A stretch of 64,000 nt of DNA from IMG/VR virus record IMGVR_UViG_3300046744_000381, positions 64,001 through 128,000 of that record, one strand, 5' to 3'. Made by a program: the position numbers and the translations under genes. Below, piece by piece: positions 52,345-64,000 of the stretch. Source of the DNA: a virus. Below the pieces are notes generated by a model, which was not told where the DNA came from, ran no database searches, and saw nothing but the letters and a program-made list of their open reading frames with translations. The stretch's first letter is position 1. Each line of letters begins with the position of its first letter.

Positions 52345-53436
52345 ATGTTAGATGCACTCAAAAATCTCTTCGAAAATGACGCACTATCAGAAGAAGTACG
52401 TTCTGAATTAGAGGAAGCGTGGAACGCAAAAGTTAAAGAAAATCGACTTGAAGTTACTAGTGAACTACGCGAAGAATTTGCTAAAAAGTATGAACACGAT
52501 AAAACTACAATGGTAGAAGCCATTGATAGTCTTGTTACAGAAAAACTAGCAGAAGAAATCGCAGAATTCCAAGACGATCGTAAACAACTAGCAGAAGCAA
52601 AAGCAAAATTTGCTGTTGCTCAGCGTAAAAATGCTAATCTAATGAAATCTTTTGTTTCTGAGCAACTTGCTACAGAAATTAAAGAACTGCACTCCGATCA
52701 AAAAGCAATGGCAGATAAATTTGTTGCTCTAGAAGAGTTTGTAGTAGAATCACTTGCGAAAGAACTTGCAGAATTTTACGAAGACAAAAAAGACTTGGCC
52801 GAAACAAAAGTACGTTTAGTACGTGAAGCCAAAGAACATCTTAGTAGCGTTAAGTCAACGTTTATTAAGAAAAGTGCAGCGTTGGTATCAGAAACAGTAT
52901 CAAAGGGTCTCACAAAAGAGATTTCTTCACTGAAAGAAGATATTGAAGCAGCACGTGAAAATGATTTTGGACGTAAATTATTCGAAGCATTTGCTAACGA
53001 ATATCAACACTCATATCTTAACGAGAAGAGTGAAACTTCTAAACTACTAAGGGTTGTAGGTACTAAAGACCAACAGCTTGCAGAAGCAAAAGAAGCAGCG
53101 TCTAAAGCAATCAAACTTGCAGAAGCACAGGCAGCAGAGAACAAAAAGATCACTGAATCTGTGTCACGCAAAGAAAGTATTGATGGTTTAGTAGCTCCGT
53201 TGAGCATTGACCAGAAAGAAATAATGATGGACTTGTTAGAATCAGTTCAAACAGGAAAATTACAATCACAGTTTGAGAAATACTTACCGGCAGTTATCGA
53301 CGGCAAGAGTCCAACGAAGAAGGCAGTTTTAGCAGAGGCAAAAGAAGTAACAGGCAACAGAACAGAAACAACTGATATAACAGCAAAGGCTGATAGCAAC
53401 GTAGTTGATATCAAGCGTTTAGCTGGTTTGAATTAA
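52345..53436 (+). CDS. gp22: Prohead scaffold protein
   Basis: Long E/K/A-rich coiled coil between protease and capsid genes. Confidence 0.8.
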   Translation: MLDALKNLFENDALSEEVRSELEEAWNAKVKENRLEVTSELREEFAKKYEHDKTTMVEAIDSLVTEKLAEEIAEFQDDRKQLAEAKAKFAVAQRKNANLMKSFVSEQLATEIKELHSDQKAMADKFVALEEFVVESLAKELAEFYEDKKDLAETKVRLVREAKEHLSSVKSTFIKKSAALVSETVSKGLTKEISSLKEDIEAARENDFGRKLFEAFANEYQHSYLNEKSETSKLLRVVGTKDQQLAEAKEAASKAIKLAEAQAAENKKITESVSRKESIDGLVAPLSIDQKEIMMDLLESVQTGKLQSQFEKYLPAVIDGKSPTKKAVLAEAKEVTGNRTETTDITAKADSNVVDIKRLAGLN

Positions 53437-53446
53437 GGAGATAACA

Positions 53447-54616
53447 ATGTCAGAACTATTAGAAAGTCGCTGGCAAGAGACTAAAACAGCACTTCTTGAA
53501 GGCCTAAATGGCAATAAGAAAGCAGTTATGGCGTCAACACTTGAGAATACACGCAAGTATTTGGCTGAGACTGCAGGTGCTGGAGCTACCTCTGCCGGCA
53601 ATATCGCAACACTTAACCGTGTGATCCTACCAGTGATCAGACGTGTTATGCCAACAGTGATTGCAAACGAAATCGTTGGTGTTCAGCCAATGACAGGTCC
53701 AGTGGGTCAAATCCACACATTGAGAGTACGTTACTCTGATACAGCAGGCTCAGGCGCAAGCGGAGCAACAGCTGGAGAAGAAGCACTTTCACCATTCAAA
53801 ATTGCTGAAGCATATTCTGGTGCAACCAGTGGTAAAGCAGCAGCAACAGCAGCTCTAGAAGGTGCAGCTGGTAATAAACTTAGCATTCAGATCTTGAAAC
53901 AGACTGTTGAAGCTAAATCACGTAAGTTATCAGCACGTTGGACATTTGAAGCGGCACAAGACGCTCAAAGCCAGCACGGTATCGATGTAGAAGCAGAAAT
54001 TATGGCAGCACTTGCTCAAGAAATTACTGCAGAAATCGATCAAGAGGTCCTAGGATCACTTGCTTCTTTAGCAGGAACAGGTACAGACACTTATAACCAA
54101 GCAGCAGTATCTGGTACAGCTACATTTGTTGGCGACGAACACGCAGCTTTAGCAGTTCTAGTTAACAGAGCAGCAAACAGAATTGCACAGAGAACACGTA
54201 GAGGCGCAGGTAACTGGGCTGTTGTTTCTCCAGCAATTTTGACTGTACTTCAGTCAGCAACAACTTCAGCGTTCGCAAGAACAACTGAAGGTACTTTTGA
54301 AGCACCAACAAATACTAAAATGGTTGGTACTTTGAACGGTGCAATGAAAATCTACGTAAACACATATGCAGCAGATGATGATGTATTAGTTGGATACAAA
54401 GGTTCTTCAGAATCAGACGCAGCAGCGTTCTACTGCCCATACATTCCGTTAATGAGTAGTGGCGTTGTACTTGACCCAACATCATTTGAGCCAGTCGTAT
54501 CATTTATGACTCGTTATGGATATGTTGAGTTGTCAAACACAGCTTCGTCTCTTGGTAACGCAGCTGACTACGTAGAGAAAGTTGAAGTGAACACAGGTAA
54601 CTTGAGTTTCTCATAA
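53447..54616 (+). CDS. gp23: Major capsid protein
   Basis: RRVMPTVIANEIVGVQPMTGPVGQI, VEAKSRKLSARWTFEAAQD, AFYCPYIPL, FMTRYG. Confidence 0.97.
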   Translation: MSELLESRWQETKTALLEGLNGNKKAVMASTLENTRKYLAETAGAGATSAGNIATLNRVILPVIRRVMPTVIANEIVGVQPMTGPVGQIHTLRVRYSDTAGSGASGATAGEEALSPFKIAEAYSGATSGKAAATAALEGAAGNKLSIQILKQTVEAKSRKLSARWTFEAAQDAQSQHGIDVEAEIMAALAQEITAEIDQEVLGSLASLAGTGTDTYNQAAVSGTATFVGDEHAALAVLVNRAANRIAQRTRRGAGNWAVVSPAILTVLQSATTSAFARTTEGTFEAPTNTKMVGTLNGAMKIYVNTYAADDDVLVGYKGSSESDAAAFYCPYIPLMSSGVVLDPTSFEPVVSFMTRYGYVELSNTASSLGNAADYVEKVEVNTGNLSFS

Positions 54617-54634
54617 GCTAAACTTTACAAGTTC

Positions 54635-54661
54635 AAAATAGGCCCTACGGGGCCTATTTTT
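54635..54661 (+). terminator. Intrinsic terminator after major capsid gene
   Basis: AAAATAGGCCC-TACG-GGGCCTATTTTT. Confidence 0.9.
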
Positions 54662-54666
54662 ATGAG

Positions 54667-54672
54667 TAAATA
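54667..54672 (+). promoter_or_regulatory. gp55-type late promoter (TAAATA)
   Basis: TAAATAC right after terminator, before AAGGAG SD. Confidence 0.55.
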
Positions 54673-54690
54673 CCCACAAGGAGTAATATA

Positions 54691-54885
54691 ATGATATACA
54701 AAGGTCAGGTTTATAAGTTTACAGGTAAATGGGGTGTTGTACGTCCAGATGCATTTGGTCAAGTACGTGTTGACGTACTGTTTGATAAAAATCAACATAA
54801 ACTAATTATTGGTGATCGTGTTGAATATGAACAAATTGAAAAAAATAATAGAAGATATGCAGAAAATATTGTAAAAATAGGTTGA
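54691..54885 (+). CDS. Cold-shock-domain-like (OB-fold) small protein
   Basis: KGQVYKF..KWGVVRPD...DVLF...LIIGDRVEYE...YAENI follows the CspA pattern with degenerate RNP motifs. Confidence 0.65.
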   Translation: MIYKGQVYKFTGKWGVVRPDAFGQVRVDVLFDKNQHKLIIGDRVEYEQIEKNNRRYAENIVKIG

Positions 54886-54909
54886 CTTTTATTTTGTATA
54901 TGCTATATT
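54882..54909 (+). promoter_or_regulatory. Sigma70-type promoter (extended -10) for the ncRNA
   Basis: TTGACT, 16 nt, TATATT preceded by TGn. Confidence 0.65.
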
Positions 54910-54915
54910 AAGTAC

Positions 54916-55159
54916 ATAACAAAGACGACGGTCCTAGTTAGATAGTGCAAGGAAGAGAGATAGCAGGTCTCAAACTTGGCTAGTAGTTGTAGTGACAGCG
55001 TATGAGCGTGGAGACACGAAGATGCGACTTTAAACGTAACTGTTTGATACTAGGCTCTTGGTGATTTAGCAGAACAGACTGCAAAGCCGGGTTGTTGGTA
55101 TTCTGAAGTCCAACCTATCAACATTATAGAAAAAGGTCTACTTCGGTGGGCCTTTTTTT
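54916..55159 (+). ncRNA. Candidate ~240-nt structured ncRNA (family unassigned)
   Basis: Own promoter and terminator, no ORF; hairpins CGTG-GAGA-CACG, GTTGT-AGTG-ACAGC, GCAG/CTGC, GGTTG/CAACC; long-range CCTAGT/ACTAGG and GATAG/CTATC. Confidence 0.7.
55130..55159 (+). terminator. Intrinsic terminator with UUCG loop
   Basis: AGGTCTAC-TTCG-GTGGGCCT followed by a T run. Confidence 0.9.
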
Positions 55160-55191
55160 ACGAACATTATAACCCATTTTTTCGAAAAGGA

Positions 55192-55291
55192 TAAATACTA
55201 TTGTCAGATAGTATGCCGCAAGGCGGACTTATGCTGTACCCGCAGCGTAGCTCATAGAACGGGCATCGGACTTCTAAACAGGAGAAAACAA
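55192..55291 (+). promoter_or_regulatory. Late promoter plus structured 5' leader
   Basis: TAAATA at 55192; closing stem GTCAGAT/ATCGGAC enclosing three hairpins; GGAG SD at 55281. Confidence 0.6.
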
Positions 55292-55642
55292 ATGGGAAGA
55301 CCTATTAATAAAAGAAACTTTGGCGCTACTGGAGCCACCACACCAACAATACCAGTTAGATATCACAACGGATCATCAAGTGTAGAAGGTTACATTGTGA
55401 ATCAAAAAGGTACAAACAAATTTACAGTAACAACTAACGGTTCTGATACATTCGTATGCAGACTTGTTAATGAAGTTGCTCCAAATGCAGCAGCAGAAAT
55501 GTCATTAGTTGGCTTAGCAGGCAGTCCTGTTATTCTGAAGAAACTATTCAACAGAACAGCAGTTGATTGGGACGGTAACCGTTATACTTGGACTACTGAG
55601 GACGACTCTACCGAATCATTGTTAAGACTGACAGCCATTTAA
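55292..55642 (+). CDS. Small virion structural protein (putative head/neck accessory)
   Basis: MGRPINKRNFG...GYIVNQKGTNKF; strong SD; late promoter. Confidence 0.55.
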   Translation: MGRPINKRNFGATGATTPTIPVRYHNGSSSVEGYIVNQKGTNKFTVTTNGSDTFVCRLVNEVAPNAAAEMSLVGLAGSPVILKKLFNRTAVDWDGNRYTWTTEDDSTESLLRLTAI

Positions 55643-55653
55643 GGAGTTTCTAA

Positions 55654-56673
55654 ATGGCTCAACGTATCAATAGAATCGGCGCAGATTCTTATGTAATCAA
55701 AGTAGATAATGGCGGAAGCATTGAATTAGATGTAGGACCAGCAGGTGCTGTCACAGTAACCGGTGATCTTGCAGTTCAAGGTGAAAGCACATCTATTGGA
55801 TCTAGTGATCTTGTAGTTGAAGATAATACTATTACTGTCAACGCAGGTGAAACAGGCAGCGGAGTTACATTAAACACAGCCGGTTTAATTGTTGAGCGTG
55901 GAATCGCAAATGATGCTTACTTCTTCTGGGACGAAAGAGTACAAAGTATTAGTGGCGGAATAGCTCGTCAAGGTAGTTGGATATTACAAGACTCAACTAA
56001 TGCTATTAACGGATTAGTTGCATCTAGTATTAGACCAGATACTATAGGAAGTAACAATTTAACTTTACTAGCTGAAGGTACAGGTATTGTTACAGTTACA
56101 GGTACCACTGATTACGAAAAGCAAGTGTATGACTACACAGGCGATGACATTACTACTAATGCCAGTAATCCAACAAAATTAGTTTTACCAAACGACGATG
56201 ACGCATTAGTATCGGCTAGATTACTTGAAGACTTTGTAAGAGGATACACAACACAAAACTTACAAACAGGTATTTCAAAAGGCGATACTACACCTACTAG
56301 TGTAAAAACTTTTGACTTTGAAGTTGATTCATCAACAAGTAGAATTGAATTTAAAATCGATGACAATTTGTTAGCAACAATGTTTGAGAATCGCTTAGAA
56401 ATTGGCAATATTAAAATTACTGCTAATTCTATTACATCTAGCGATGTTAATGGCGATGTTGTTCTTGCAGGAGCAGGTACTGGCGGTGTTAGATTAGATA
56501 CTGCTACTACTATCAAAAAATTAGCAGACCCAGTTGTACCAACTGATGGAGTTTCGTTATATAGTAAACCATTAGCAGATGGAGGAACAGGTATATTTTT
56601 TGTAAATGAAGATACAACTCAAGACGAACTAGCAAGTCGGAACAAAGCACTACTTTTCAGTATAATATTTTAA
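55654..56673 (+). CDS. Fibre-like structural protein
   Basis: VTGDLAVQG...VEDNTITVNAGE...AGLIVERG...FFWDE motif of T4-like fibres; C-terminal NKALLFSIIF. Confidence 0.65.
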   Translation: MAQRINRIGADSYVIKVDNGGSIELDVGPAGAVTVTGDLAVQGESTSIGSSDLVVEDNTITVNAGETGSGVTLNTAGLIVERGIANDAYFFWDERVQSISGGIARQGSWILQDSTNAINGLVASSIRPDTIGSNNLTLLAEGTGIVTVTGTTDYEKQVYDYTGDDITTNASNPTKLVLPNDDDALVSARLLEDFVRGYTTQNLQTGISKGDTTPTSVKTFDFEVDSSTSRIEFKIDDNLLATMFENRLEIGNIKITANSITSSDVNGDVVLAGAGTGGVRLDTATTIKKLADPVVPTDGVSLYSKPLADGGTGIFFVNEDTTQDELASRNKALLFSIIF

Positions 56674-56683
56674 AGGAACAGAA

Positions 56684-57016
56684 ATGGCAATAGTAAACGC
56701 ACAAATAGCAAGCACAGATACAATATTAATTACTGTCCCAGCAGCTAAGAAATATGCTATAACTACAGTTCTAGTGTGTAACAACCAGTTTGATGACTCT
56801 AGTGGTGCAAATGATACAACATTTGATATGCACGTTATACCAGCTGGTCAAAGTAAAACACTTAGAAATTTAGTTTTAAATGACTTAAAAGTTGCAGCGG
56901 CAGATACATTTACATTTAATGTAGAAAGATTGATTTTAGAGGCAGATGACAGATTAGTGTTTGTAGGTGCTAACCCACAAAATTTAAGTGTTACAGTAAG
57001 TTATTTGGAAGTATAA
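56684..57016 (+). CDS. Small beta-rich structural protein
   Basis: 110 aa, RLILEADDRL...VTVSYLEV. Confidence 0.6.
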   Translation: MAIVNAQIASTDTILITVPAAKKYAITTVLVCNNQFDDSSGANDTTFDMHVIPAGQSKTLRNLVLNDLKVAAADTFTFNVERLILEADDRLVFVGANPQNLSVTVSYLEV

Positions 57017-60000
57017 ATGGATTATTTTAAGAGACAGTCGTTACATAGCAGGTTAATAGGAGACACTAGTGTAACATTAACAGCAGATGGCGAAGTCTTA
57101 ATCGAACCAAGCGGTCGCAAGGTTACGATTGACGGCGACTTAGTTGTTACAGGAAACGCAAGCGGTTCTGAAGTTACTGACATACTTTATGTTACCCAAG
57201 ACGGTAATGATTTAAATGACGGTAAAAGTTTAGGACCAGACGGAGCGAAAGCAACAATTAAAAGTGCTGTCGCTTCATCAAGCCCGGGTACTACAATTCT
57301 TGTAGGACCAGGAGATTTCTATGAATCAAATCCAATAACTCTACCAGATTTTGTTACTATTAGAGGTACTGGTGATTTAAGAAATACTAGAATTTTCCCA
57401 AGAAATAATACGCAAACTATTTTCTATATGGGAAATGGTTGTTACTTACACGAACTTACTATGAGAGGGTTAAGATATCCAGGATGGTGTGCTGAAATAC
57501 GAGAAGGCGCACTTGTAACAACATCACCATATATACAAAACTGTACAAATATGAATGGTCCTTGGTTGAATGACGGCACAGAATTTATTCCATTCGAAAC
57601 AGTGCAGATACCAGGAATTGAACCTGGTGCTAAACCATTAATGGTTGAAGATTATCCTGCTTTACCTTCTGGCAAACAAGTTAATGACACAGGCGGCGGT
57701 GGCGGCCTATATGTTGACGGTAATCAATATGATCCTGCATCACTTGTGTTTAGTTTTGTTGCAGATGCATTTACACAAATTGCACAAGGCGGAGTTGGCT
57801 TTTGGATTGATAATTTTGGTTACACACAAATTGTTAGTTGTTTCTCAGTATTCTGTAGTGTTGGTTTTAAAACCACACGAGGCGGCTATCTATCTATTTC
57901 AAACTCTGTAAGTGACTTTGGATTAAAAGGTATTGAAGCAGACGGATTCTATCCACAAGCATATACAACTGCCAGACCACAGCAAGATTATTTTAGTACT
58001 GTTGCAAGTGTTACAATTAATACACCTGGTGCAAATTATACTTCTGCTCCTACTGTTGTAATAGAAGGACCATCAAAAGTTGGAGGCGTAACAGCGACTG
58101 CCACTGCATCAATAGACACTACTTCAGGAAAACTAGCTGCTGTTACAATACAACAAGCAGGTAGCGGTTATACTAGTGTCCCTTTAATTTCATTTAGTGG
58201 AGGCGGAGCAACTGCTCAAGCCACAGGCACAATTAATCTTGCCTCTAATGTCACAGTAACCCTAAACAGTTTAAGAGACAAACCACAAACAGGTAGTATA
58301 ATTAAATTTGAAGGTGACCCTCTTTATTATTATATTACTGGAACTAATCAAATTAATCCACCTTTTGTTTATGATGAGGTAGTATGTAGAAGAGATTTAC
58401 GTAGGATTATTGACGCTGTCACTGCTGATATTGTTTTAGGCACAAGTTATCAATCACAAGCAGCAGCAACAAGTTACTTGAGAGCAACATCAAGTAAAGT
58501 ATTATCAGATCAATTGGCACCAACTGTTTTTGGTATTGAATCGGCTAGAGACGGAATGAAGGCCGAAACTACTAATCTAGCAATGGAAGAGCAAATTGAT
58601 TATTTGTTTAACATAATTACAAGCACAATTAATGAAGGGGACAGTAGTGTACAGCCCGATAATCAAAATGATATTGCTAATACACTAAACGATCTGAATA
58701 CTATCGACCCTGCAAGAATTGCTGCAAAAAATAATGTTTTAGAAAATAGAGAGTTTATAGTAGAAGAAGTTGCAGCATATGTTAATGATCAGTTTACTGA
58801 ACTAAGTTATAACCAAGCTGATTATACTAGTGATATGACAACACTTATTAATGGTATTCAAATGTTTGCAGCGTTAGAAAGTAACCAGCAAATTATTAGA
58901 CTTGCTCAAGAATACGAAGTACGCACTAGATTCAAACCAATGTTGTTGTCTAGTTTTAGATTCCTAAGCGAAAAATTTGAAGCACTAGCCGAAGTACAAG
59001 CAAGTACAATTGCATTAACAAATGTTAAAGAAGGCTTCAACCAGTTTATGAATATTATTGATGATGGTGATAGTTCGGCAAATGTAATTGTATTTCCTGA
59101 ACACGCAGGAGTTGATAGCAATAGAGCAGATGCTAAAGATCAATTACAAGCAAACAAAAACTTTTTGACAACAGAATTTACAACTTTTCTAGCAGCAGAA
59201 GCTCCAGGATTTAGTTTTGATGTGGATAATTACAAATTAGATTTTGAAAGAATAATCGATGCTATGACCTTTGACGTCCTGTACAACGGTAATAGTAGTA
59301 CAGTTTTAGAAGCTAGATATTATTTTGATAATGGTGCAGACGGAACTTTATTTTCAGATTTAACACCTAATGATAGAAATGCTATCGTACAATCATATGC
59401 ACGTATGAGATTTGTAATAGGTAGAGTAGCTAGAGGTTTAGCTGTAACAGCTACAACCGGTAATGGCGTTAGTCAAGATTTTACAAGCAACAATGCAACA
59501 CAGAGTGAAGCTGATTTTCTAGATACATTATTGTTTAACATTGAAGATATGATAGATAATGTAACACTAGATAGATTGCCTTCAACTTTAACATATCCAA
59601 CATACGGGGACGAACCTGCGTTACAGGTAGATGCTGCAAATATTATTGAAGCTAGACGTAACGGTTTTATTACTGATGCTATATCATATAATTTAGCAAA
59701 TAATCCAACACTTACATACAATCAAGATAAATGTAAAAGAGATATCGGTTACTTGGTTGATGGAATTAATCGTGACATACTATTAGGTACTAATCATAAT
59801 AGTATACAGGCAGCTACAGCATATAAACGTGCAAATGTTGCATATCTAAATTCAGAACAAAAACCAGCTACAATTCTTTCATTAAAATATGCAAAAACAT
59901 TAGGAATAGCAGCAGTTACAACTAATGATTTAATCAGAGACGATGTTTCAGCAAAATGGGATATAATTCTTGATATTATAGAATTTGATCAATTACCTAG

Positions 60001-63000: not shown

Positions 63001-64000
63001 AGATTTAAATAATGTTAGTACTGTTAGTACAAGTGGACACGCATTTGAGTATGTCGGTGCTGGTATAACCTACAATGCACTTCCATTCTTTGGCGGTACA
63101 GCAATACCTGAAACTGAGATTGTAGAATCAAATCAAGGTAAAATATTTGCTGGTGGTACAGTTGACCAAATTGGTAACTTTAGAGTTGGTAACTTCTTTG
63201 CTGTTAATGCACTTACAGGTGGTATCAGCTTAAATGCTAATGAAATTGACCTAGAAGGTTTGACAAGTGTTGGTCCGTTTATTAGAAACGGTATTCCAGT
63301 TGGTGTTGAATTAAAAGAGGTTAGTGACAACGAAGCATTGTTATCAAGTTTAGGCACACAAGATTTCCAAACAGCACCTACACAAAGAGCTGTTTCAAAT
63401 TATGTTGAAGCAAGATACTTGAACAAAACAACAGGCGGTGATATTGTTGGCGATGTAAGTATGACAGGAGACTTAGCAGTCAACGGTGATGCAATTACAA
63501 GTACAAATACAAGTTTTGAATTCCTTAATACAGGTGTACAAAGCATAGATATGTTAGCTGCGGCAACCACTATTAATATTGGTGCTGCAACAGGTACTGT
63601 TACAATTAATCCAGATGTTACAATAGAAGGTGTTCTAACTGTTAACGGAAACTTAGTATTTGACGGTGATGTTAATATTAGTATACCAGATGAAACATTA
63701 CAAGCATATAGTATTACTGAAGGCACTGAAGATTATATAAGCATCAATACTAGAGAAGGTGAAGAAGCAATTACATTTGGTGAGCAGCCAAGTGTTATTA
63801 TTGCCAACCAAACAATATCAACAAGCAAAGACACTGGTGCATTAGTTGTAGACGGCGGTGTTGGTGTTGAAGGCAGTGTGTTTATAAACACTGATTTAAC
63901 TGTTACTGCAAACGCAAACCTAGGTGCAGATAGAACTACATCCGAACATACTGTTTCAGGTAAAATAGATATCGATATTCCAGATGATAGTATTAATAAT
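57017..64000 (+). CDS. Giant tail fibre/structural protein (>2328 aa, runs off the right edge) with beta-helix region and tandem CxRD helical repeats
   Basis: ATG at 57017 directly after the previous stop; frame open to base 64000 (...KIDIDIPDDSINN); YVTQDGNDLNDGKS...TILVGPGDFYE pectin-lyase-like start; SGHAFEYVGAG...DQIGNFRVG fibre motif. Confidence 0.85.
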   Translation, partial: MDYFKRQSLHSRLIGDTSVTLTADGEVLIEPSGRKVTIDGDLVVTGNASGSEVTDILYVTQDGNDLNDGKSLGPDGAKATIKSAVASSSPGTTILVGPGDFYESNPITLPDFVTIRGTGDLRNTRIFPRNNTQTIFYMGNGCYLHELTMRGLRYPGWCAEIREGALVTTSPYIQNCTNMNGPWLNDGTEFIPFETVQIPGIEPGAKPLMVEDYPALPSGKQVNDTGGGGGLYVDGNQYDPASLVFSFVADAFTQIAQGGVGFWIDNFGYTQIVSCFSVFCSVGFKTTRGGYLSISNSVSDFGLKGIEADGFYPQAYTTARPQQDYFSTVASVTINTPGANYTSAPTVVIEGPSKVGGVTATATASIDTTSGKLAAVTIQQAGSGYTSVPLISFSGGGATAQATGTINLASNVTVTLNSLRDKPQTGSIIKFEGDPLYYYITGTNQINPPFVYDEVVCRRDLRRIIDAVTADIVLGTSYQSQAAATSYLRATSSKVLSDQLAPTVFGIESARDGMKAETTNLAMEEQIDYLFNIITSTINEGDSSVQPDNQNDIANTLNDLNTIDPARIAAKNNVLENREFIVEEVAAYVNDQFTELSYNQADYTSDMTTLINGIQMFAALESNQQIIRLAQEYEVRTRFKPMLLSSFRFLSEKFEALAEVQASTIALTNVKEGFNQFMNIIDDGDSSANVIVFPEHAGVDSNRADAKDQLQANKNFLTTEFTTFLAAEAPGFSFDVDNYKLDFERIIDAMTFDVLYNGNSSTVLEARYYFDNGADGTLFSDLTPNDRNAIVQSYARMRFVIGRVARGLAVTATTGNGVSQDFTSNNATQSEADFLDTLLFNIEDMIDNVTLDRLPSTLTYPTYGDEPALQVDAANIIEARRNGFITDAISYNLANNPTLTYNQDKCKRDIGYLVDGINRDILLGTNHNSIQAATAYKRANVAYLNSEQKPATILSLKYAKTLGIAAVTTNDLIRDDVSAKWDIILDIIEFDQLPSVGIEYPDPGPASNELIYGVDQVLANKAFLQEETVQFINNQYFVYNSAKCERDTGLIIDAAAYDTLLGTNYNAVTAGLSYQRANSAYVLSDQNTETIGGINFAKSRSSDATTHSPSQSDVEAAFDEVIDIIQNGAVSTPQAADPLTFTDPSTASTAEINTKSQLQNNRNFIAAETVAYINENYVNFTYDSSKCERDIGLILDAISKDVALGTNYNTVTAGLAYSRATAATNKAAQGLQTLESFKFARKETIEKGLSDTGEARALASWNEVIDIFENGVVSTDTAADAITFTTPVGASQDLEDAKDQLQANRDFIAAEIVAYVNDNTPPAGYNQTKCNRDVKYIVDGLSHDILYGGNSATRLVAASYFEGAVAQLPVNQLTPTTNAYTHLKDTVIPAIITNTPLTPTTGNTETQDTTNGAATATESAALELLVDIIIDHINGYDNVNPLGDEVLPSVTWSTSELQQDYSTIVAQKSSIQSLTTQFIADTFTGFNFNSTKCDRDTKYIVDALTYDILYGGNSATLNAARSYWVGTQTQVEGQKAETATALEYTATILNKIIQDQAVDYTWQSSEAQDTTAGAGTTTEAATAANLLQIIQDVITDGLDNLPTEVKPDYATFANADVIAGVNNLLTEKDTIVADTITYINTTYNGFSYDQEVCKRDTGYIIDAIVHDAFYEANISTLIATRAYFLGSTQYLPNEQVAPTVAAYNHLQSVIDDTIQGVAVIPQSGNSLSQVLSGNYGNAAVGTTFTNLIGILKTAITNQTLIGTPAEIEPNYTWINQATRDAAESFFVQKSYYETETIKYIEQNILGFSYNIDKCKRDTGYIIDAAIYDMMYGGDKQSRRAALAYYNGAILTGITGDYGDQTGITAYANKYLASIVNKVSKNETVTKSFGNPATQLLTIPDGSTLLETGELPGAELELLIARVADAIEAKTMGDWFEREHNLTLGNSIFLQERNAILDAEDDIVDNAISSLNLVYGGIFDINVFPGVISVTTDKLADLNNVSTVSTSGHAFEYVGAGITYNALPFFGGTAIPETEIVESNQGKIFAGGTVDQIGNFRVGNFFAVNALTGGISLNANEIDLEGLTSVGPFIRNGIPVGVELKEVSDNEALLSSLGTQDFQTAPTQRAVSNYVEARYLNKTTGGDIVGDVSMTGDLAVNGDAITSTNTSFEFLNTGVQSIDMLAAATTINIGAATGTVTINPDVTIEGVLTVNGNLVFDGDVNISIPDETLQAYSITEGTEDYISINTREGEEAITFGEQPSVIIANQTISTSKDTGALVVDGGVGVEGSVFINTDLTVTANANLGADRTTSEHTVSGKIDIDIPDDSINN
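58360..62900 (+). repeat. About ten ~140-165-aa protein repeats, eight with C-x-R-D
   Basis: Cys codons at 58385, 59732, 60146, 60575, 61004, 61493, 61973, 62456; Cys-less copies near 58820 and 59230. Confidence 0.85.

Follow-up and report, generated by a model that had tools for sequence, protein, structure and literature searches.

manA RNAs (Rfam family RF01745) were described by Weinberg et al. (2010, Genome Biol 11:R31, PMC2864571) from marine metagenomes, T4-like cyanophages and two gamma-proteobacteria. The alignment of the family was corrected in Rfam 14 (PMC7779021), and a cyanophage paper lists manA among cis-regulatory elements. Since 2010 the family has been filed as a riboswitch candidate without a ligand. 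In a preprint (10.64898/2026.07.01.735769), manA RNAs are reported to form 8-, 10- and 60-mers in vitro, with pentamer-based decamers and a 60-mer cage made through L5-L7' and L8-L9' kissing loops. Another manA variant in that preprint uses L5-L7', L3-L8' and an L6 GNRA-receptor contact, and its RNAs are called putative cis-regulatory elements. A literature search found no paper on manA as a stand-alone gene; the supplements of Weinberg et al. and of the preprint were outside its reach. Here we analysed a stretch of 64,000 nucleotides (nt) of viral DNA, positions 64,001 to 128,000 of IMG/VR record IMGVR_UViG_3300046744_000381 (the window; all positions are those of the window unless stated). 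Its plus-strand interval 54916-55159 probably forms an independent gene whose product is a folded RNA of about 244 nt and belongs, as a divergent member, to the manA family; we also propose a mechanism for this RNA.

The window RNA has the same build as manA: a 5' hairpin with a GACG-type loop, a closing stem followed by GUG, P3, P4 around three hairpins, a long P8 and P9. The motifs GU(A/G)GU(G/A), a GNRA loop and UUG-nnGGU...UCCnn-CC are shared as well, and both RNAs occur in phages of aquatic bacteria. The window copy differs in its score, which is below the family cut-off, and in its weakened P1. Its host also differs, being a giant phage with a capsid like those of PA5oct, Vibrio phage 2.275.O and Serratia phage BF and not a T4-like cyanophage. 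Finally, it reads as a promoter-to-terminator unit, whereas catalogued manA is an element of the 5' untranslated region (UTR). GOLLD and ROOL are large RNAs of phages and prophages that often lie beside transfer RNAs (tRNAs) and are reported to multimerise. They resemble the window RNA as structured non-coding phage RNAs and as candidate RNA-only multimers, and tRNA adjacency was seen here in two related loci. They are far longer and have other folds, and the window has no sequence or model match to either.

The RF01745 model, searched with reporting by E-value, matched 54921-55124 over model positions 1-192 of 192 with 29.7 bits (E 1.1e-5), and a search of the whole record placed the match at the identical site. 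The gathering score of the family is 55.2 bits, and an Rfam scan at gathering thresholds reports only freshwater-2 in the window. Routine Rfam annotation therefore overlooks this RNA. We fetched 123 related IMG/VR loci with two proteins as queries, the capsid protein encoded upstream and the protein of 116 amino acids (aa) encoded downstream. Among these loci, homologues of the window RNA were recovered by blastn and nhmmer. Iterated nhmmer converged at 41 hits, all of which lie on the plus strand past the capsid gene, with the 116-aa gene beginning about 150-210 nt further on. Nine exact duplicates and four hits truncated at contig ends were dropped, and the window and 28 homologues with 40-73% identity to it were aligned with plain, structure-blind MAFFT (alignment A1, 29 sequences).

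On 34 related records the RF01745 model gave a match at the syntenic site in 24, and eight of the 34 were above the cut-off (79.9, 78.6, 75.4, 60.4, 57.1, 56.4, 55.5 and 55.5 bits); an independent cmscan found 5 of 20 loci above it. A single nhmmer profile grown from the window, on which the window itself scores 133 bits, also matches loci that pass in Rfam (L117 with 101 bits, L015 with 122, L039 with 128, L103 with 113 and L097 with 138). The manA consensus secondary structure, with its 5' hairpin, closing stem and multi-helix core, was found in the window RNA in model order. Near-invariant columns of A1 match manA consensus nucleotides (GTG of GTGCAAGGAA, GT.GT, TTG..GGT and TCC..CC), and the conserved manA nucleotides are present in the window, with GUG following the closing stem, a loop of the GUGGUG type and UG..GGU/UCC..CC in the final hairpin. 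Because synteny and one shared profile tie it to members that pass the cut-off, the window RNA is very probably a divergent manA-family member. It is to be classed as a new sub-threshold member of a catalogued family and not as a new RNA class.

A previous reading of this region from the DNA letters alone (the sequence-only reading) had presented the RNA as one that it did not recognise, neither tRNA, transfer-messenger RNA (tmRNA) nor small ribozyme, and possibly a ribozyme, protein decoy or antitoxin mimic. ARAGORN indeed found no tRNA or tmRNA in the window, and known ribozyme families gave no match at E<=10 in 54600-55400. The novelty is gone by that reading's own standard, since the Rfam check identifies the RNA as a divergent RF01745 manA, and nothing was found in favour of the three suggested functions. 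A new RNA class unrelated to manA, with a function of this kind, would agree with the window's score under the manA cut-off, and manA, itself without known function, leaves room for decoy-type roles. We consider such a class highly improbable, as an unbroken chain of syntenic homologues leads up to 79.9 bits on RF01745, helix order and conserved motifs are common to the window and the model consensus, and the ribozyme search was empty.

Outside the related metagenomic loci, blastn of 54880-55300 against 50,697 GenBank phage records gave no match. RF01745 was also searched in Vibrio 2.275.O, PA5oct, Phosso and Serratia BF, the cultured phages whose capsids are most similar, and gave no match at E<=1 in any of the four; the controls of that search likewise gave no match, so that it is no evidence of absence. 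The gap 3' of the capsid gene is just about 100-150 nt in these phages.

The predicted nine-helix fold of manA type is strongly supported by covariation. The manA-type structure was written onto A1 and the pairs were counted, with no covariance model of our own. Paired cells amounted to 80.9% of A1 as compared to 64.7% in shuffles, and double changes were found in 47 of 58 pairs as compared to 35.5. The covariation score was 0.438 against 0.176 for shuffled alignments and was matched by none of 500 shuffles, and control structures slid by 1-3 columns gave 0.096-0.119. Covariation among homologues, a check that the sequence-only reading had proposed, was thus found. Folding of the single sequence was just modestly above chance (z = -1.97 on the plus strand and +0.31 on the minus strand).

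The support is spread over the helices (Table 1). The P1 segment forms a hairpin in all 29 sequences, and all six pairs of helix 1 have changes on both sides. Compensatory AU, UA and GC swaps were seen in P2, with variants including GCTTTG/CAAAGC and GGAATTG/CAATTCC. In P3, helix 4 is 94.8% paired, with CATC/GATG in L051, and 27 of 29 sequences, folded singly, close the domain over its full length. Helix 7, which forms P4, is 91.4% paired with both-sided changes in 6 of 6 pairs, and the GNRA loop of P6 is kept in 28 of the 29 sequences. P8 folds as a hairpin in every single-sequence fold (29/29), with all five pairs of helix 13 altered on both sides. P9 (helix 15) is paired in 100%, two of its pairs covary (UA/GC/GU and AU/UA), and it agrees with the manA consensus UG-ugGGU...UCCca-CC. 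The plain MAFFT alignment under-counts the variable hairpin tips (helices 5, 6 and 14; 46-59% paired): the tips of P3 and P8 are misaligned, yet they fold as hairpins in 27/29 and 29/29 single sequences. A coding reading was considered and rejected; the 29 segments hold stop-free frames of 34-72 codons on either strand, the frame is not conserved, and the substitutions in the stems are compensatory.

Several helices of the sequence-only reading recur in this fold. Its CGTG-GAGA-CACG hairpin is P6, GAGAT/GTCTC and GCAG/CTGC lie in the hairpins that fold in 27/29 and 29/29 sequences, and its long-range pairing GATAG/CTATC is the closing stem. Its other long-range pairing, CCTAGT 54933-38 with ACTAGG 55049-54, is 67.5% paired as compared to 67.4% in shuffles, and CCTAGT sits in the 3' half of P1. 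The crossing pseudoknot built from these two pairings was rejected, because CCTAGT/ACTAGG pairs no better than shuffles; two loop-loop complementarities exist instead. The segment near 54978-83, proposed as an alternative partner for the CCTAGT side, contributes to the true partner (CTAGTA 54980-85) of 55048-53. GTTGT/ACAGC and GGTTG/CAACC turned out to be window-specific or out of register, the conserved helix being the GTTGG/CCAAC of P9.

The two loop-loop complementarities connect L5 with L7 and L8 with L9. At the first pair of L5/L7, AU and GC account for 13 sequences each and another combination for the remaining 3, and four Watson-Crick pairs are possible in 16 of 29 sequences and three in another five. 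Within the sub-clade of the window, 16 of 18 sequences carry the reverse complement of the L9 4-mer in the cognate P8 tip, as compared to 5 of 256 non-cognate pairs, and five different complementary L8/L9 4-mer pairs were seen. From these patterns, selection appears to maintain L5/L7 and L8/L9 complementarity across the phage clade. Weinberg et al. (2010) label one manA element 'pseudoknot?', and we infer that this is the loop complementarity corresponding to L5/L7 here. L5/L7 and L8/L9 also carry the numbers of both kissing interfaces of the cage-forming manA_A0F1 of the preprint, a likeness that stands at the sequence level here and takes the loops to be equivalent. We equated our helix numbering with that of the preprint because the sixth helix bears the GNRA loop here (28/29), as does the preprint's L6.

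A second sub-clade (L039, L086, L015, L103, L064, L002, L051, L090 and L117) has an L3 UACCA that by eye complements L8 UGGUA. Such a contact between L3 and L8, if it forms, would be akin to the L3-L8' interface of another manA variant in the preprint. In L010 the P8 region and L9 share one identical 7-nt word instead of complementary words, and the L8/L9 rule breaks there.

Promoter, RNA and terminator at this locus appear to form one unit, which would be followed by a separately promoted messenger RNA (mRNA), and we regard the RNA as likely to be a stand-alone gene. The sigma70-like promoter named by the sequence-only reading scores 10/12 and is among the two best of eight sites in 53000-57000. 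The pattern TTGA[CT]-17/18-TAnnnT lies upstream of the RNA in 29 of 29 homologous loci, with the upstream TG in 28, and the -10 ends 34-43 nt 5' of the closing stem, immediately before P1. The promoter type GTTGAC-N13-15-TGnTATAnT occurs at four sites on the plus strand of the 136.9-kb record and at none in the reversed control. Behind the three other copies no Rfam match was found at E<=0.01.

The conserved promoter bears on whether the RNA could be a 3'-UTR or processing element, such as a stabiliser, of the transcript of the capsid gene and a 64-aa open reading frame (ORF), with no promoter of its own. The RNA does follow the capsid gene, its immediate upstream neighbour in 12 of 29 loci is the ORF, which resembles a cold-shock domain (CSD), and an RNA-library contig (54819-54969) spans the putative start. 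This explanation is nevertheless very improbable to us: the -35/-10 pair is kept in 29/29 loci amid variable surroundings, where the CSD-like ORF is lacking the promoter comes immediately after the terminator of the capsid gene itself, and the same promoter type stands before ORFs elsewhere in the record.

As the sequence-only reading had noted, the gap holds no plus-strand ORF of at least 30 aa between 54886 and 55291; the sole ORF in it is a 34-aa minus-strand TTG frame (54980-55084). The UUCG terminator of that reading was likewise found, with a hairpin of -9.1 kcal/mol that starts 15 nt past the closing stem. A consensus terminator scan listed none in 53000-57000, despite the visible hairpin and T-run at 55135-59. 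A GC-rich hairpin with a T-run is present in 24 of 29 homologous loci, 30-70 nt past the closing stem. Beyond these 24, L090 and L117 have terminator-like hairpins below the thresholds used. In L016 and L047 a tRNA-Gly(UCC) stands right behind the RNA in place of the terminator, which suggests co-transcription and 3' processing at the tRNA, and in L006 and L096 other sequence is inserted 3' of the RNA. With the promoter in 29/29 loci, the terminator in 24/29, the tRNA-Gly in two more and the strong covariation, the earlier claim of a self-contained non-coding RNA gene is supported.

The terminator could also belong to a cis-acting riboswitch or attenuator, in which 54921-55124 would be the aptamer and 55135-59 an expression platform gating read-through into a structural operon of the 116-aa gene and a 339-aa gene. 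In Weinberg et al. (2010), manA carries the ratings cis-regulatory ('Y') and probable switch ('y') and is placed in 5' UTRs. Here, too, the 116-aa gene invariably follows the RNA on the same strand, the terminator is close behind it, and one RNA-library contig crosses the terminator. The mutually exclusive pairing of the aptamer's 3' part and the terminator that such a switch calls for was not found in 24 sequences: when the 5' arm of the terminator was matched to the final 70 nt of the core, the longest complementary stretch averaged 5.33, as compared to 5.46 for shuffled arms. The spacer between closing stem and terminator is AT-rich and variable, a conserved ATAAATA motif and a leader RNA belong to the 116-aa gene itself, a tRNA stands in for the terminator in two loci, and two others (L006 and L096) carry inserted sequence behind the RNA. 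We therefore regard a cis-acting switch at this locus as improbable. The Rfam type of manA is 'Cis-reg', with a 5' UTR position; the window RNA does not have this position, because it has its own promoter and terminator and no anti-terminator signal and the next gene is separately equipped. Taken together, the gene-like anatomy and the covariation between loops speak against the riboswitch role of the catalogue and for a trans-acting, possibly self-assembling RNA family.

Contigs (Logan) of four RNA-library runs were compared with 53400-56700; such contigs show no starts, ends, strand or level, and may come from DNA. Two oligo-dT runs of one study (X15 and X17) gave exact low-depth contigs over 54696-55256 and 54767-55073, those on the RNA being 151-179 nt long with a depth of 2-4. 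Two metatranscriptomes (X16 and X18) had contigs over the capsid gene and 55217-56623 and none on 54621-55064. These contigs support no conclusion on expression, either way.

In the mechanism that we propose for the free-standing manA-type gene, host RNA polymerase would produce the RNA, probably at an early stage of infection, and the RNA would be a discrete and stable molecule that exerts no cis regulation on the neighbouring gene. The 'early-expressed' of the sequence-only reading likewise leans on the host-type promoter. The co-varying complementary loops L5/L7 and L8/L9 would pair with further copies of the RNA and so give closed homo-oligomers, and the assembly might serve the phage, at a guess, as a scaffold or a sequestering particle. 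Self-assembly through L5/L7 and L8/L9 in vivo is a possibility that we put forward tentatively. If the contacts are intermolecular as in manA_A0F1, RNA-only, pentamer-based shells could be produced in the infected cell from the strong host-type promoter, which we think rather unlikely. Were this true, the RNA cage made in vitro would have a genuine counterpart in the virus, which could be a compartment, a host-factor sponge or a scaffold, and the entire manA family would be an assembly RNA that has been mistaken for a riboswitch candidate. At its cut-off the Rfam manA model overlooks this sub-clade, and annotation could gain if the 29 aligned sequences were used to extend the seed.

Several points weigh against the free-standing, self-assembling manA RNA. 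The window's own RF01745 score is far below the family cut-off, and the gathering scan is silent on it. In 8 of 29 sequences L5 and L7 show no complementarity in register. Close relatives are among the sequences counted for L8/L9, so that the independent switches number about five, not sixteen, and L8/L9 complementarity is weak in the second sub-clade. Covariation cannot separate intramolecular from intermolecular contacts, and we infer the mapping of our helix numbers onto those of the preprint (10.64898/2026.07.01.735769), whose assemblies formed in vitro at high RNA concentration with Mg2+. The cis-regulatory rating of manA by Weinberg et al. (PMC2864571) belongs here as well. In the RNA libraries, one contig spans the promoter and another the terminator (55106-55256), as with DNA carry-over or read-through.

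Table 1. Positions of the manA-type RNA, its predicted helices and loop contacts, and features of its surroundings.
Feature	Position	Strand	Details
Predicted transcript	54916..55159	+	about 244 nt; predicted start about 7 nt past the -10, end at the terminator U-tract
manA-type RNA core	54921..55124	+	full-length RF01745 match below cut-off
P1, 5' hairpin	54917..54940	+	TAAC/GTTA outer, GAC/GTC inner, GACG loop
P2, closing stem	GATAG 54941..54945 with CTATC 55115..55119	+	helices 2-3, 94.8% paired
P3 domain	54948..54978	+	CAAG/CTTG outer, GAGAT/GTCTC hairpin inner, loop L3
P4	CTAGTA 54980-85 with TACTAG 55048-53	+	encloses P5, P6 and P7 (domain 54980..55053)
P5	54986-96	+	loop L5 GUAGU; helix 8, 98.3% paired
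P6	54999-55026	+	GAGA GNRA loop 55011-14; helices 10-11, 78.6% and 94.0% paired
P7	55032-45	+	loop L7 GUAACU 55036-41; helix 12, 71.4% paired
P8, long hairpin	55057..55091	+	apical loop L8 AACAGA 55073-78
P9	GTTGG 55094-98 with CCAAC 55110-14	+	11-nt loop L9 55099-55109
L5/L7 contact (predicted)	AGU 54991..54993 with ACU 55039-41	+	helix 9, 89.7% paired
L8/L9 contact (predicted)	CAGA 55075..55078 with UCUG 55102-05	+	complementary covarying loops
sigma70-type extended -10 promoter	54882..54909	+	-35 TTGACT 54882-87, TG 54901-02, -10 TATATT 54904-09, spacer 16
Three other copies of the promoter type	G000:C1 20956-20985, 21420-21449, 29539-29568 (outside the window)	+	each 6-39 nt before an ORF of at least 132 aa
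Intrinsic terminator	55130..55159	+	A-tract, GGTCTAC-UUCG-GTGGGCC 55135-52, 7 T 55153-59
tRNA-Gly(UCC)	L016 4499-4573; L047 4366-4439		directly 3' of the manA-type RNA
64-aa ORF	54691-54885		upstream neighbour of the RNA gene; its stop overlaps the promoter -35
Region delimiting the RNA gene, outside it	55190..55294	+	GATAAATAC 55190-98, then freshwater-2 leader 55212-94
116-aa gene	55292-55642	+	3' neighbour; freshwater-2 leader starts about 14 nt after GATAAATAC
RF01739 sites	L103 2308-2359; L017 4234-4281; L005 4236-4282		43-56 bits; cut-off 35

The record is an uncultured marine giant phage, an IMG/VR entry that is about 38% complete by CheckV. DNA runs matching all sampled words of the locus are marine or seawater metagenomes, and the source sample is possibly among them. 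Its Gp23-type major capsid gene (53447-54616; Pfam PF07068, E 1e-99) encodes a protein 65-70% identical to those of the giant phages Vibrio 2.275.O, Sinorhizobium Phosso, Pseudomonas PA5oct and Serratia BF. The capsid gene is followed by a hairpin with a T-run, the 64-aa ORF, the gap with the RNA, the freshwater-2 RNA and the 116-aa gene.

The 64-aa ORF has a weak match to the CSD family PF00313 (E 0.0045; 17.3 bits, below the 27-bit cut-off). We considered the CSD-like ORF as an obligate partner of the RNA; its homologue is the direct upstream neighbour in just 11 of 28 related loci (12/29 with the window).

Downstream, the freshwater-2 RNA (RF02980) scores 68.1 bits as compared to a gathering score of 49.9 and reaches as far as the start codon of the 116-aa gene; it was above cut-off in 8 of 20 related loci. 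A literature search on freshwater-2 returned unrelated papers only. The motif ATAAATA is present within 130 nt downstream in 27 of 29 loci. We take it to resemble the T4 late promoter TATAAATA, as presumably does GATAAATAC at 55190-98.

Three of 20 related loci, but not the window, carry a glutamine riboswitch aptamer (RF01739) 3' of the capsid gene and 5' of the manA-type RNA. Three genes downstream, an open frame of more than 2328 aa begins at 57017 and runs past the window end at 64000.

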